Of a stretch of 64,000 nucleotides of DNA, positions 38,807 through 43,290 are shown in pieces. Every line of letters begins with the position of its first letter. The stretch's first letter is position 1. The notes beneath the pieces are model-generated. The model ran no database searches, was not told the DNA's origin, and saw only the letters and a program-made list of their open reading frames with translations. Source of the DNA: Bacilli bacterium (GTDB lineage Bacteria; Bacillota; Bacilli; Bacillales; Amphibacillaceae); the NCBI GenBank assembly GCA_012838505.1, contig DUPD01000037.1:3687-67686 (forward strand), written 5' to 3'. A program made the translations under genes and the position numbers.

Positions 38807-39661
38807 ATGAGTATCGCAATTGTAACAGATACAGGTTGTAATATTTCACCTGAAATGGCTGAGGAACTTGGTATTCACTTATTGCCAATTGAAATCATAT
38901 TTGAAAATCAAACTTTTAAAGATGGATTTGAATTAACGAACCAAGAATTTTATCAAAAAATGGCTGTTTCTAATAAGATTCCAACGACTTCACAGCCTAA
39001 ACCTAGTGATGCTTATCAACTTTATGACAAATTGAGCAAAACATATGATGAGATTTTAAGTATCAATTTAGGATCAACAGTCTCTGGCACAATTCAGACT
39101 TTAAAGCTAGTTGCAGAAGAAATTAAACAGGCAAAGGTGACTGTTTATGATACTAAACTGGTTTCTATTCCAGCAGGTTACTTAGCTATTGAAGCTAAAC
39201 GTCTCGCCGATCAAGGAAAAACTGTAGCTGAAATCGTTGAATCTCTAGATGATTTACGCGGTAAGTCAGTTGCCTTTGCTTCTATACATGAGTTGGATAA
39301 TTTAGTTGAAAGCGGTCGTGTTCCAGCAGTTTTAGGGACTGTTGCAAAACTTGCAAAAATTAAACCGATTATTAAAATCGAAGCGAAAAATTCAAAAGGT
39401 TTAGAAATAATCGAGAAAATTCGGACGAACAAGCGAGCAATTAATAAATTGATTGATCTAGCAAGCGCACATATTGAATCAATTAACTATCCATTTCATC
39501 TCGATGTTGCCCACGGTAATATACCTCAAGTTGCGGAAGAGGTGCGTCAATTTTTATCGGAACGATATCCAGACCAGCAAATTAAAATACACCGGTTAAC
39601 AAGTGTGATCGGAGTCCATTCTGGTCCAAATATTGTTGGTATATTTATTGGAGCAAAATAG
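38807..39661 (+). CDS. DegV/FakB fatty-acid-binding protein
   Basis: IAIVTDT, PTTSQP, VSGT, SGRV, KIKPII, VIGVHSGP. Confidence 0.95.
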   Translation: MSIAIVTDTGCNISPEMAEELGIHLLPIEIIFENQTFKDGFELTNQEFYQKMAVSNKIPTTSQPKPSDAYQLYDKLSKTYDEILSINLGSTVSGTIQTLKLVAEEIKQAKVTVYDTKLVSIPAGYLAIEAKRLADQGKTVAEIVESLDDLRGKSVAFASIHELDNLVESGRVPAVLGTVAKLAKIKPIIKIEAKNSKGLEIIEKIRTNKRAINKLIDLASAHIESINYPFHLDVAHGNIPQVAEEVRQFLSERYPDQQIKIHRLTSVIGVHSGPNIVGIFIGAK

Positions 39662-39804
39662 TTTAGCGATCTGTAAAATCAATTTTTTAAATAACAGTAG
39701 AAATTTTCTTGAAAATAGTTCGAATTGATAGTAAACATTTAAAACAACTTCGTAACTTTATCTTGATATACTTCGACTGATGATATGATCTGGAGGTTAT
39801 TAAG

Positions 39805-40363
39805 ATGAAAAAAGTTCTTGATTGTTTCACAATTAATTTTTTTCACAAGTTTTCTTTTGGGGTGTCAAATAGATGAAGATACAATATCAGACTCAGTTAA
39901 AAGTGAGCTTGCACAACAATATGGAGGCTTTATTAACCCTGATTTAGCAGAGCTTGAAACTAATCATCAATCAGAAGAGAGCTGTAAATTACAATTTGAT
40001 AGTGAAATTGTCAATATTAGTGTTTTAGATTTAAAACAAAATGATAAAATAATTTTTGAAGATGATAAATCGATTGAAATTCTTAGCAGTGCATTTATAA
40101 GTGCTGTTAAAGTAAATGGAATAGTGAATATAGCAGCTCCAGAGATTAGAATAAATGTTGTTTTGGAGAATAAAAATGAGCAAAATTTTTATTTGTGGAT
40201 TGGTCAACAGGGTGAAAAGAGCACGATAATGAAAACAGATGATACTCTTAGAGTCTATACGATTCCAGAGGCAATGACAGACAAGCTAAATGATTTAATT
40301 AGCTACTATCGAATAATCAATTCTAGCAACGATATAAAGTTGTTAGATGATAAATATGATTAA
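39805..40363 (+). pseudogene. Lipoprotein (YhfM-like) frameshifted right after the start codon
   Basis: GGAGG-N8-ATG AAAAAAG TTC; removing one A gives MKKFLIVSQLIFFTSFLLGC (lipobox) in frame with ORF 39818-40363. Confidence 0.7.
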
Positions 40364-40413
40364 GACATTTGCACTGGTTCATCAACATCTTTAATGATTA
40401 TAAACGAGGGTTA

Positions 40414-40437
40414 TGTTACAATAAGAACATAAGTTCG
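40414..40437 (+). promoter_or_regulatory. Extended -10 promoter plus LexA (SOS) box
   Basis: TGTTACAAT (40414-40422) followed by AGAACATAAGTTCG (40424-40437), matching Firmicutes GAAC-N4-GTTC. Confidence 0.8.
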
Positions 40438-40460
40438 TAAATTAATTTGGAGGTGCTGAT

Positions 40461-41444
40461 GTGAGTAAACGATCAAGAAAAAGGACTTTAGAAGTTAGTG
40501 AAATTATTAGATTATATCAAGAAGGAGAAAGCACAACTAACATTGCAGCAAAAGCAAATATTTCTTCAAGATACGTGCTTATGATTTTAAAAGACAATGA
40601 TGTTAAACTGCGTCCAAGAGGTAGCTGGAAGCGCAAATATACGTTAAATGAGGACTATTTTAAAGTCTGGTCAAACAATATGGCGTATATATTAGGATTT
40701 TTAATCGCAGACGGAACTGTATCAAGGGAAGGCCAGTTTGTAAGTATAGCGCAGAAGGAAAAATACATTTTGGAGAATATAAAACAGGAATTAGGATCTA
40801 ATCAACCACTTTATCAAAACAAGCAAACAGGTGTTTATATACTAAACATTAACAGCAAAATTATTAAGCATGATTTGATTAATATTCATGGAGTCATACC
40901 GAACAAATCAAGTACAATTAAATTTCCTCACGTACCAAATGAGCACATGAGTCATTTTGTCAGAGGGTATTTTGACGGAGATGGATACGTTAACTATAAT
41001 CAATATACAGTAACATTTGTTGGAGGTTCAAAATCTTTTATGCTAAGATTAATTAATATTTTAACAACAAATGGCTTTATAACACAATTCCAACAGCAAG
41101 ATAAAAATTTTCGTGTTCATATACGAGGTAGAAAGTCTATCAAATTGTTCTCTGACTGGATTTACAAAGATAAAGCTGAAGATCTTTACTTGATAAGAAA
41201 GTATGATGTATTCAAAAAAGAGAAATTAGAAGCACATCAACTTGTAGACAGTAAACATTCTAATGAAATTAAAGCAGTTTTTAAACGAAAATTAAACTTT
41301 TTAGTGATTTATGCCATAACAAATTCATTTGAATATACATGCACCTGTATCAACATTTCACCGAAAACTGTAAGGGGATGGATTAGAAAAGATAAATCAT
41401 TCGAAACTAACTTTAACTTTCTAAATAAGAATCAAAGTGCCTAA
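40461..41444 (+). CDS. Free-standing double-motif LAGLIDADG endonuclease-family protein with N- and C-terminal HTH domains
   Basis: AYILGFLIADG and HFVRGYFDGDG motifs, PNKS, RKY; HTH-like termini; GTG after GGAGGTG; no intein or intron flanks. Confidence 0.88.
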   Translation: MSKRSRKRTLEVSEIIRLYQEGESTTNIAAKANISSRYVLMILKDNDVKLRPRGSWKRKYTLNEDYFKVWSNNMAYILGFLIADGTVSREGQFVSIAQKEKYILENIKQELGSNQPLYQNKQTGVYILNINSKIIKHDLINIHGVIPNKSSTIKFPHVPNEHMSHFVRGYFDGDGYVNYNQYTVTFVGGSKSFMLRLINILTTNGFITQFQQQDKNFRVHIRGRKSIKLFSDWIYKDKAEDLYLIRKYDVFKKEKLEAHQLVDSKHSNEIKAVFKRKLNFLVIYAITNSFEYTCTCINISPKTVRGWIRKDKSFETNFNFLNKNQSA

Positions 41445-41751
41445 ATTTGATTCTCTTATTTTCCTTATCGAGTTAACATAATATAAATTATCTGAAGTTG
41501 TGTGTAAATAGTGAATTAATTATATTAAATTGTGAGTGTCAGCTAATTCCTGAATATTCACAGCTTTTATTAATCAAATCTATCTGCACCTTCATTATAG
41601 CTGCTATTTTTACGCAATTAGATGAACAACTTGCCCATAAAATTAATCTAATTAGCTTAAAATGCTCGCTAGAAACTCTAATATTTTCACTTATACGTGA
41701 TCATCATTATATTTGCTATGCAAAACTCTCATTTAAATGGCGAACCGATTT

Positions 41752-41791
41752 AAAAAATCCTTACTCACTTGAATTGTTGAGTAAGGATTTT
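41752..41791 (-). terminator. Terminator of the GH43 gene
   Basis: AAAATCCTTACTCA / TGAGTAAGGATTTT. Confidence 0.85.
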
Positions 41792-41802
41792 AATATTGGT
41801 AA

Positions 41803-43212
41803 TTAAGCTAAAGTAAATGAAGCTAAACTTGGTCTACCATGACCTCTATACGTGATATAAATTGAGTGAATGCCATTTGGAATATTAATATCAGATTCCA
41901 CTTCAGTCCAGATATTTTTATTACTTACTGGGAATGTTGCAAGTGCTTCGCCATCCCATGATGTCTTCACCTCAAAATGACCATTGCCATAGCCCCGATA
42001 TTTGATGCTGAACTTTGTTACATCTTGAATGTCAAAATACTTAAATCCTGCCGTTGAAGAATCAGTCATATTTCGAATGTATCCAATCTCTTCATCGCCA
42101 TCTTTACCCTCTTGTGTAATGATTGGGAATTGTGTGTCCATTCCTAAATCACCAGAATAAGCTTGTCCATCTTTATGAAATAAGTGGCAAGCAATATAAG
42201 TTGGATACTCTCCCCGTCCCTCTAACGGTCCGCCGTTAGATCCACAAGATGTGATCTCTACCTGTGGAATTGATCCATCTTCTAAAACTTTAATTGGCTC
42301 CATACATGCTTGACGACTAAAGTTTTGTCCATTTGAATGTCTGTGGTAGAAAATATACCAATTTCCTTCAATTTCAACAATACTACCGTGGTTATTTCCG
42401 CCATAAGCCATTGGTTTATTAGCAGGTTTATAAGTATCAATGTGCATATCATTATTACTTACAATCACACCTTGGAACTCATATCCTTTTGTTGGGTGCT
42501 TGCTTGTCGCATAGCAAAGTTCATGGAAAACAGTTGAAGAATAGATAATGTAATACGTATCGCCAATTTTTCTTGGTGATGGCGCCTCAAAAAACTCATG
42601 TCCTTCAAAACCACTGCCTTTAGCGTATGGTTCACTTGGTAATACTGTCACTGTTTCTTCTACAATCGTAATCATATCAGGTCCAAGGACTGTTGCCATC
42701 GCACCTGTACGTGACTTATCGCCAACTGCACAAAAACCTGTTAATAAGAGTGTTTTGTCACCCTCAGTTAATACGCCTGGATCAAACTGTGGCTCATCTC
42801 CTGGTCTCTCACCTAGACGATTTCCCTCTTTATCTTGGACATAGCCATAGAACTCAAACTTACCAGCTGGTGAATCAGAAACCGCTACTGAAACAAGTGG
42901 AGTTTTATCTAAATTATAATATAGGTAATAACGTCCATCTGGCCCTACTGTCACATCAGGTGCATAAAGACACATGCTTCCGTCAGGATTGATCGGATCA
43001 TCCGTCTTTTTATAAATTACGCCCTCATAACGCCAGTCAGTTAAATCGTCAACTGGTGCTGACCATGTCACGTAGTCATTAAGACAATAAACTTCGCCGT
43101 TGAATTTGTCATGAGATCCATAAATATAAACACGACCATCAAATACGTAAGGTTCTGCATCTGGAATGTACTCCCATGATGGCAGATAAGGGTTAAATCC
43201 TTGCTTTTTCAT
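41803..43212 (-). CDS. GH43 glycoside hydrolase (xylosidase/arabinofuranosidase-like) with C-terminal CBM6-like domain, no signal peptide
   Basis: YIPDAEP, YGSHD, LYAPD, FDPG, FFEAPS, NNHGS, FYHR motifs. Confidence 0.9.
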   Translation of the reverse strand: MKKQGFNPYLPSWEYIPDAEPYVFDGRVYIYGSHDKFNGEVYCLNDYVTWSAPVDDLTDWRYEGVIYKKTDDPINPDGSMCLYAPDVTVGPDGRYYLYYNLDKTPLVSVAVSDSPAGKFEFYGYVQDKEGNRLGERPGDEPQFDPGVLTEGDKTLLLTGFCAVGDKSRTGAMATVLGPDMITIVEETVTVLPSEPYAKGSGFEGHEFFEAPSPRKIGDTYYIIYSSTVFHELCYATSKHPTKGYEFQGVIVSNNDMHIDTYKPANKPMAYGGNNHGSIVEIEGNWYIFYHRHSNGQNFSRQACMEPIKVLEDGSIPQVEITSCGSNGGPLEGRGEYPTYIACHLFHKDGQAYSGDLGMDTQFPIITQEGKDGDEEIGYIRNMTDSSTAGFKYFDIQDVTKFSIKYRGYGNGHFEVKTSWDGEALATFPVSNKNIWTEVESDINIPNGIHSIYITYRGHGRPSLASFTLA

Positions 43213-43290
43213 CAATAAACACCACCATTTATAATTTTAGGGTAAAGCTCTTAAAACTTTAAGTAAATAACGCATTTTTAGAAATTCCCT

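Follow-up and report, generated by a model that had tools for sequence, protein, structure and literature searches.

A free-standing HTH-LAGLIDADG gene of Bacillales with a putative LexA operator and an exchangeable C-terminal half

The locus

The window discussed here is a stretch of 64,000 nucleotides from an Amphibacillaceae genome (contig DUPD01000037.1, assembly GCA_012838505.1), and all positions are counted from its first letter. It contains a lone gene for a two-domain LAGLIDADG protein, with the following features at and around it.

40414..40422, + strand: extended −10 element TGTTACAAT, read from the sequence; the −35 is poor
40423..40438, no strand assigned: putative LexA (SOS) operator AAGAACATAAGTTCGT, core GAAC-N4-GTTC at 40425-40436, over the expected transcription start
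40449..40455, + strand: ribosome-binding site GGAGGTG, 5 nt before the GTG start, read from the sequence
40461..41444 (stop codon included), + strand: coding sequence of the HTH-LAGLIDADG endonuclease, 327 aa, GTG start
40494..40595, + strand: N-terminal helix-turn-helix (HTH), aa 12-45 (Pfam HTH_58 and HTH_28, AlphaFold helices)
40686..40715, + strand: first LAGLIDADG motif, YILGFLIADG, with catalytic Asp84
40959..40985, + strand: second LAGLIDADG motif, VRGYFDGDG, with catalytic Asp174
40986..41475, + strand: exchangeable 3′ cassette (beta-sheets of the second half-domain, C-terminal tail, stop and a 31 nt trailer)
41226..41441, + strand: C-terminal helical tail, aa 256-327, HTH-like
41476..41505, no strand assigned: conserved right-border element ACATAATATAAATTATCTGAAGTTGTGTGT, seen in the window (WIN) and in G062, G009, L070, L068, L069 and L002

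The gene is free-standing, without an intein, an intron or an interrupted host gene. Its flanks are whole, independent genes, namely degV and a YhfM-like lipoprotein gene upstream and a convergent GH43 gene downstream. An intein-encoded endonuclease could be rejected because Pfam found no Hint/intein domain in the protein, the gene has its own ribosome-binding site, start and stop, and the neighbours are whole. A group I intron-encoded endonuclease was rejected likewise, as no Rfam family matches positions 39500-42000 at up to E = 1 and no host gene is interrupted.

The gene is present in a single copy in its genome. Silent cassettes or relics that could serve intragenomic switching were considered and rejected, as blastx returned nothing below E = 0.2 for either the flanks or the entire window. 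A conserved partner or immunity gene was also rejected, because the neighbours vary by genus and none is shared (YhfM-like and GH43 genes here, an MBL hydrolase and a DUF1963 gene in the Bacillus cereus group, and an MFS gene in Sporosarcina).

Domain structure of the protein

The Pfam family LAGLIDADG_3 (PF14528) matches the protein in two stretches (5.5e-17), and its score of 62.2 bits against a cut-off of 22.5 meets the criterion for membership of the superfamily. Position 8 is still acidic in both motifs (ILGFLIADG and RGYFDGDG). When 48 homologues are aligned, Asp84 and Gly85 show no variation, and at least 90% of the proteins have Asp174. An acidic residue ends each LAGLIDADG helix, which meets the metal-binding criterion of the superfamily. 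An AlphaFold model built with the homologue alignment has a mean pLDDT of 91.5 and shows the elements in the expected order: a three-helix N-terminal unit at aa 12-45 (helices 12-20, 25-32 and 36-45), a two-domain LAGLIDADG core at aa 72-234, and then a C-terminal helical bundle. The anatomy of the gene and the conservation of its catalytic residues can be regarded as shown.

Structure comparison with Foldseek retrieved the TliVMA intein endonuclease domain, I-Tsp061I, PI-PfuI and I-DmoI as the best structures (E 1e-9 to 1e-6 for I-Tsp061I, I-DmoI and PI-PfuI), with WhiA at rank 4, and a profile search of PDB sequences was concordant. The phage family phrog_4645 ('endonuclease') matches aa 4-253 with an E value of 1.5e-45, and the generic homing-endonuclease model 'HEase' of PADLOC also matches the protein (4e-08).

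The two terminal modules are less firmly identified. HTH_58 matches aa 13-58 with 24.6 bits, just above the cut-off of 23.8, and the DNA-binding domain of gamma-delta resolvase gives a profile match to the N-terminal HTH at E 0.036. The C-terminal tail, which is missing from the 'type B' alleles described below and from phage relatives, reaches a pLDDT of 86 when folded alone. No Foldseek match to it was found below E = 1; that it forms an HTH is plausible as a model prediction and remains unproven. The weak Foldseek list for the tail consists mostly of HTH regulators.

A preliminary description, made from the sequence alone, had proposed most of this anatomy. Its 327-aa protein with two LAGLIDADG helices that keep their acidic residues was borne out by Pfam, the alignment and AlphaFold, and so was its N-terminal HTH, by the narrow HTH_58 match and the AlphaFold helices. 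The C-terminal HTH-like segment was upheld only as a helical tail. The claimed absence of an intein junction, an interrupted host gene and an intron core also stood, and no remnants of an intron or intein, which would have refuted that reading, were found in the flanks.

A LexA-type box over the promoter

The box AGAACATAAGTTCG occupies positions 40424-40437, starting 1 nt past the −10 element, and its core GAACATAAGTTC lies at 40425-40436, 2 nt past that element. The same layout of TGTTATAAT plus box recurs in the Amphibacillus locus L070. The extended −10 was not listed by a consensus promoter scanner, because the −35 is weak.

The GAAC-N4-GTTC core occurs once in the whole window. At least one such site is also found in 45% of shuffled windows, and the single site is therefore weak evidence when taken alone. 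The 2.33 Mb assembly has 15 exact sites, six of them intergenic; the other exact intergenic sites precede, among others, a Y-family (DinB-like) polymerase gene and a 46-aa membrane ORF. The genome contains lexA, with the box CGAACTAACGTTTG, and its uvrB carries the box CGAATATTTGTTCG. These boxes of lexA, uvrB and the dinB-like gene are comparable to, or weaker than, the one considered here. A recA gene was not found in the assembly, which is 86% complete.

The main evidence for the operator is comparative. Homologous loci were scanned for GAAC-N4-GTTC with at most one mismatch within 200-220 nt upstream of the gene. A first set of 31 homologue loci had the box in 25 cases, and another 19 loci, all from the window's own family, had it in 18, giving a total of 43/50 across at least four families of Bacillales, against a background of 13 among 192 neighbouring ORFs in the same loci (about 7%). 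In every lineage inspected it overlaps the core promoter, either at the −10 or in the spacer: it directly follows the −10 in Amphibacillus and Virgibacillus, and lies in the spacer before TATAAT in Geobacillus, Thermolongibacillus, Sporosarcina thermotolerans and the allele of the sister species G062. That allele is only 36% identical to the window's protein and occupies the same site; the box is found also before Sporosarcina genes of 31-34% identity, and persists across a range of 31-75% protein identity. Among relatives in phage contexts and on plasmids, at most one weak site was found in seven loci.

The criteria for membership of a LexA regulon, namely an operator of the host's type over the promoter and its conservation upstream of orthologues, are both met. 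Conservation of the operator is shown, and control by LexA is strongly supported by comparison and likely; binding of LexA and induction by damage are inferred, without experimental data. The preliminary description had placed a LexA box just past an extended −10 and over the expected transcription start, which held; it had also proposed looking for the box upstream of homologues, where the absence that would have counted against it was not met. We found no paper linking a LAGLIDADG gene to LexA or the SOS response in Bacilli in the open-access literature, subscription journals and regulon databases being outside the search.

Distribution, descent and selection

There are 1,190 close homologues, almost all of them in Bacillales (B. 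cereus group, Oceanobacillus, Gracilibacillus, Virgibacillus, Lentibacillus, Geobacillus, Metabacillus and others), and their annotations go no further than "LAGLIDADG family homing endonuclease" or similar. This distribution is shown, and it is patchy. Among the genomes sampled from the window's own family, 26 of 151 had a match, spread over 11 of 57 genera, and more than half of the 26 matches carried stops or were fragments. Truncated members also abound in the clusters from the B. cereus group and Geobacillus.

The genomic position is stable within a genus and differs between genera. Identity to the window's protein is 75% in Amphibacillus, about 59-69% in Gracilibacillus, Lentibacillus, Oceanobacillus and Virgibacillus, about 55% in the B. 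cereus group, about 53% in Geobacillus and about 32% in Sporosarcina. Identity thus falls with taxonomy, which suggests largely vertical descent with loss, unlike the rapid horizontal spread predicted for homing. Intact copies are under purifying selection, with dN/dS of about 0.15-0.2 overall; the ratio is 0.05-0.10 in the N-terminal half and highest, at 0.22-0.49, in the C-terminal tail.

A wider superfamily, sharing aa ~10-255, comprises 3,251 clusters at 50% identity (E <= 1e-30). It is typical of phages, where relatives reside inside split DNA-polymerase genes or have terminase and lysis genes as neighbours. No relative above 35% identity was found in phages or plasmids. On the strength of the phrog_4645 match and of the relatives in split DNA-polymerase genes and phage modules, ancestry among phage homing endonucleases is likely.

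Exchange of the C-terminal half

In several pairs of homologues the N-terminal halves (aa 10-175) are 96-100% identical whereas the C-terminal halves (aa 176-255) are only 44-49% identical. These discordant pairs are as follows.

Amphibacillus: P0002 / P0008
Gracilibacillus: P0003 / P0013
Oceanobacillus: P0010 / P0061
Sediminibacillus: P0067 / P0094
B. tianshenii: P0089 / P0108

Two more pairs, in the B. cereus group and in Sutcliffiella, show a less sharp discordance. Swaps of the C-terminal half at GYFDGDG were found in at least seven lineages, and the break falls directly after this motif in 10 of the 10 discordant pairs inspected. The 3′ end of the second motif is the left border of the cassette, also at the nucleotide level in A2. 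In Amphibacillus, the long and short alleles occupy one locus with flanks of 96-98% identity; their nucleotide sequences are identical up to ...GATGGCGACGGCT, about 60% identical from there to the stop, and near-identical again from ACATAATATAAATTAT. Swapping of cassettes among alleles is shown by these comparisons.

At 55% identity the C-terminal halves fall into 23 types, and 9 of 22 clusters of N-terminal halves hold two types. Type B proteins are about 280 aa long and have no tail; their C-terminal halves are constrained (pN 0.15-0.29, with synonymous sites saturated). Approximately unbiased (AU) tests reject a type B clade on the N-terminal half (p = 4e-73), whereas type B is a clade on the C-terminal half. 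Conversely, the genus groups are clades on the N-terminal half, and the C-terminal half rejects them for Amphibacillus (7e-5), Gracilibacillus (1e-6) and Oceanobacillus (0.003); it does not reject the Sediminibacillus group. The groups for these tests were picked after the identity matrix had been seen, and the C-half result excludes the B. tianshenii pair.

Within types, the divergence of the N-terminal half is correlated with that of the C-terminal half (r = 0.67 and 0.57, Mantel p about 5e-4). A comparison of type A with type B gives 68.5% identity for the N-terminal halves, the same level as within a type, and only 47% for the C-terminal halves. An old dimorphism carried along with the lineages fits this pattern better than a recent spread from genus to genus. 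The surroundings of the gene hold no silent cassettes, so the exchange takes place between genomes.

Two candidate extensions of this pattern were not upheld. In the B. cereus group the short forms have another origin, a deletion from about aa 250 in which three neighbouring genes are also lost. A role of the second motif's coding stretch as a recombination or target site is not supported, as the window and L070 differ at most of its third positions. In the open-access literature (subscription journals were outside the search) we found no paper on natural allelic exchange of half-domains in this family.

The right border and the locus in related genomes

The nearest species, G062, is 92-97% identical to the window's genome at the uvrB and lexA loci. 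Left of its GH43-GNAT genes it carries the 36%-identical LAGLIDADG gene mentioned above, which is broken by an early TAA and has its own LexA box. Homology between the window and G062 resumes at a single point, ACATAATATAAATTAT (41476; also given as 41475), 31 nt past the stop codon. The sequence ACATAATATAAATTAT is the 5′ 16 bases of the border element and is found genus-wide, whatever adjoins it on the left. The border element was considered as a repeat or a known RNA and rejected on both counts, being unique in the genome, where no second copy was found, and without an Rfam hit. Since it occurs both with and without the gene, it does not stand out as a homing site.

The Amphibacillus relatives L002 and L070 share the gene order ABC-ABC-YhfM-LAGLIDADG-(GH31)-GH43-GNAT. 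Both YhfM and the LAGLIDADG gene are missing from G009, in which degV and GH43 are separated by 760 bp of other sequence. The preliminary description had suggested comparing this interval in relatives for an empty site; the interval in G009 was rejected as a clean one, as it holds a glyoxalase-like fragment and a small ORF. Neither a clean empty site nor a candidate target was found in the loci of the relatives or in the window. Polymorphism both for presence or absence and for allele is seen at this one locus.

A proposed mechanism

The explanation that we prefer, with moderate confidence, is that the gene encodes an active nuclease repressed by LexA, descended from phage homing endonucleases and behaving as a selfish or conflict element; binding, induction, cleavage, target and role are all inferred. 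It would be a single-gene unit, a monomeric site-specific endonuclease with two LAGLIDADG domains and an N-terminal HTH, whose ancestors would have been free-standing or intron-associated homing endonucleases of phages and whose present home is the chromosomes of Bacillales. LexA would occupy the operator overlapping the −10 and the transcription start and keep the gene repressed. Upon DNA damage, or other activation of RecA, LexA would be cleaved and the gene transcribed. Each LAGLIDADG half-domain would then read one half of an asymmetric site of ~20 bp, assisted by the HTH, and the two conserved aspartates would make a staggered double-strand cut, to be repaired by RecA-dependent recombination while the SOS response is on. 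Limiting expression to the SOS response would ensure that RecA repair is available and would otherwise avoid the cost of leaky cutting. The second DNA-reading half comes as a set of old, exchangeable allelic cassettes, a swap of which should change one half of the target site.

A selfish or conflict role is preferred to a housekeeping one because the gene is patchy and often decayed, its intact copies are under purifying selection, and its C-terminal half is swapped. Against this explanation stand the missing recA, the lack of an empty site or target, and a descent that looks vertical; a specificity of ~20 bp is also narrow for a general role in defence. The preliminary description had offered a homing endonuclease or a domesticated nuclease or regulator, a choice that is left undecided here, although the data disfavour a WhiA-like regulator and favour a selfish or conflict nuclease.

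Alternative explanations

The most serious rival, which remains possible, is that the nuclease serves its host against phages or mobile elements. In this scenario prophage induction, infection or incoming DNA would provide the SOS signal, the enzyme would cut a conserved site in the invader, and an arms race would diversify the C-terminal half. Patchiness, frequent loss and an allelic diversity confined to the DNA-recognition module are traits of defence genes, both alleles are under purifying selection, the ancestors would be phage endonucleases that target phage polymerase genes, and the PADLOC homing-endonuclease model was matched (4e-08). However, 'HEase' is merely a generic model, the gene's surroundings showed no sign of a defence island, the ~20 bp specificity of LAGLIDADG enzymes is narrow, and no phage target was identified. 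Between homing or allele competition on the one hand and an anti-phage or anti-mobile-element nuclease on the other, the data do not decide. A domesticated, WhiA-like DNA-binding regulator or repair factor that no longer cuts and serves the SOS response is less credible, and we regard it as unlikely. It could draw on the fourth rank of WhiA among the structural matches, with alignment over 305 columns, on the extra DNA-binding modules at both ends of the protein, and on the mostly vertical descent with strong purifying selection on the N-terminal half (dN/dS 0.05-0.10). Yet both catalytic aspartates are conserved here and lost in WhiA (PMC3384342), the WhiA LAGLIDADG model PF14527 reaches 15.6 bits against a cut-off of 23.2 with no hit to the WhiA HTH, and the polymorphism is confined to the DNA-reading module. 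Moreover, about 83% of the genomes in the window's family do without the gene and its copies are frequently broken, which would not be so for a core regulator.

It is very unlikely that the LexA-like palindrome is incidental, be it an AT-rich promoter palindrome or another operator, and that the gene is a decaying relic of a homing endonuclease. The chance occurrence of the core in 45% of shuffled windows and the many pseudogene copies speak for this view; against it, the box is found in 43/50 loci compared with about 7% in the background, persists over 31-75% identity and differing promoter layouts, and is essentially absent from phage relatives (at most one weak site in seven), and intact copies are under purifying selection.

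A bolder reading, which also remains possible, would take the types of the C-terminal half as an old trans-species polymorphism kept by mutual targeting or by targeting of rival DNA. The chimeric enzyme would read a shared left half-site and a type-specific right half-site and, under SOS or competence, would cut the competing allele or invader, leading to conversion by recombination. If true, this would be a bacterial chromosomal counterpart of yeast HO/WHO with the damage response as its timer.

Implications

If control by LexA is confirmed, the SOS regulon of Bacillales would include a conserved site-specific enzyme that makes double-strand cuts, and the DNA-damage programme would itself turn on a DNA breaker. 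This would be relevant to the question of how a selfish nuclease keeps its cost low and acts when the capacity for recombination is at hand. The swap of half-domains at the motif border is a natural version of the chimeric meganucleases made by engineers, and natural pairs with the same N-terminal half and different C-terminal halves offer material for rules of specificity. The gene also provides a testable bacterial system for the question of what preserves allelic types of a nuclease, mutual targeting or conflict with phages.

Comparison with known systems

An architecture of N-terminal HTH and two LAGLIDADG domains is shared with the free-standing or intron-associated phage endonucleases of phrog_4645 (e.g. 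ORF036 of Bacillus phage 0305phi8-36 and gp137 of Brevibacillus phage Jenst), which correspond to aa 4-253 with 25-33% identity to the window's protein. The phage genes form part of phage modules or are found within or next to split DNA-polymerase genes, essentially without a LexA box, whereas members of the chromosomal clade are lone genes behind a putative LexA operator, and chromosomal type A adds a C-terminal tail of ~70 aa. In having a GAAC-N4-GTTC operator of the Bacillus type over the promoter, the gene resembles the LexA (SOS) regulon genes of Bacillales, including lexA, uvrB and the dinB-like gene of its own genome.

I-DmoI, I-Tsp061I, PI-PfuI and TliVMA share the two-domain fold and the acidic residues that end both LAGLIDADG helices. 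They are encoded by introns or inteins and are only 16-23% identical to the window's protein, whose gene is free-standing and adds flanking DNA-binding modules. WhiA/DUF199 proteins resemble it in being chromosomal, in Gram-positive bacteria, and in tethering a LAGLIDADG core to an extra HTH-type module. However, nearly all Gram-positives have WhiA, its only HTH is C-terminal, and it has lost the catalytic acids and is unable to cleave DNA (PMC3384342); the gene described here is patchy and keeps its acids. Membership of WhiA/DUF199 is not met, the acids being conserved and the WhiA models below cut-off or unmatched.

The closest functional analogue that we found is the yeast WHO/HO family, by analogy in possible working and not by membership. 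In yeast, a WHO element puts an alternative version in the place of a gene's 3′ half, in an arms race with many allelic types (bioRxiv 10.64898/2026.08.13.744650). Relic clusters like those of WHO were not found near the window's gene. Like that gene, HO and WHO are free-standing LAGLIDADG genes outside introns and inteins; in contrast to the yeast elements, the 3′ half replaced here belongs to the endonuclease gene itself.

Gene turnover around the LAGLIDADG locus

The LAGLIDADG gene (window 40461-41444, plus strand) lies in a neighbourhood whose gene content differs between relatives. In G009, a relative without the LAGLIDADG gene, the interval standing in place of this gene and the adjacent YhfM-like lipoprotein gene (L065:8560-9400) contains a fragment that looks like a glyoxalase/lactoylglutathione lyase, together with a small hydrophobic ORF. 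The spot occupied by the YhfM and LAGLIDADG genes has undergone repeated turnover. The downstream GH43 gene (window 41803-43215) is intact in the window and in the Amphibacillus locus L070, which also carries a GH31 gene, and is reduced to mere remnants in a second Amphibacillus locus, L002. The upstream degV gene is present in the window and in G009, and is missing from both L002 and L070. The LAGLIDADG neighbourhood is a hotspot of gene turnover.

In the Bacillus cereus group loci (L003, L005, L006, L012 and others), the LAGLIDADG gene is oriented divergently from an MBL-fold hydrolase gene and adjoins a second paralogue of the DNA polymerase III beta clamp, itself flanked by two small ORFs. 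A three-gene segment of 2.7 kb, including one RidA-like gene, is variably present or absent immediately downstream.

The nearest species, G062, carries an allele of 36% identity (L062:5336-6513, contig C85) which ends early and has an in-frame TAA as its codon 23. Between this allele and the border element common to both genomes there is a further, independent ORF, 125 aa long, whose family is unknown.

Identity step and promoter-like hexamers at the 3′ border

Sequence identity between the window and G062 steps up as the LAGLIDADG gene's 3′ border is crossed. Window positions 41475-64000 are collinear with G062 over at least 22 kb at 98-99% identity, whereas positions 1-41474 match at 80-96%, with the matches dispersed across other G062 contigs. 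The step at 41475 could reflect a recent recombination tract ending at the LAGLIDADG locus; alternatively, the metagenome contig may be chimeric. The 358-bp spacer leading to GH43 shares 99% identity with its G062 counterpart.

On the minus strand of the conserved border element (window 41480-41508), promoter-like hexamers (TTTACA-17-TATATT) face leftwards into the LAGLIDADG gene at its 3′ end. Judged from sequence alone, they might allow an antisense transcript.

SOS features elsewhere in the assembly

No match to RecA (PF00154) was found in the whole assembly containing the window (G000; 111 contigs, 86% complete); RecA has probably been lost from the assembly rather than being truly absent from the organism. 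Outside the window, at C100:2962, an exact LexA box (AAGAACAAATGTTCTA) immediately follows a TATAAT hexamer upstream of a 46-aa hydrophobic ORF. From sequence alone, this ORF is a candidate YneA/SosA-type inhibitor of cell division in the SOS response.
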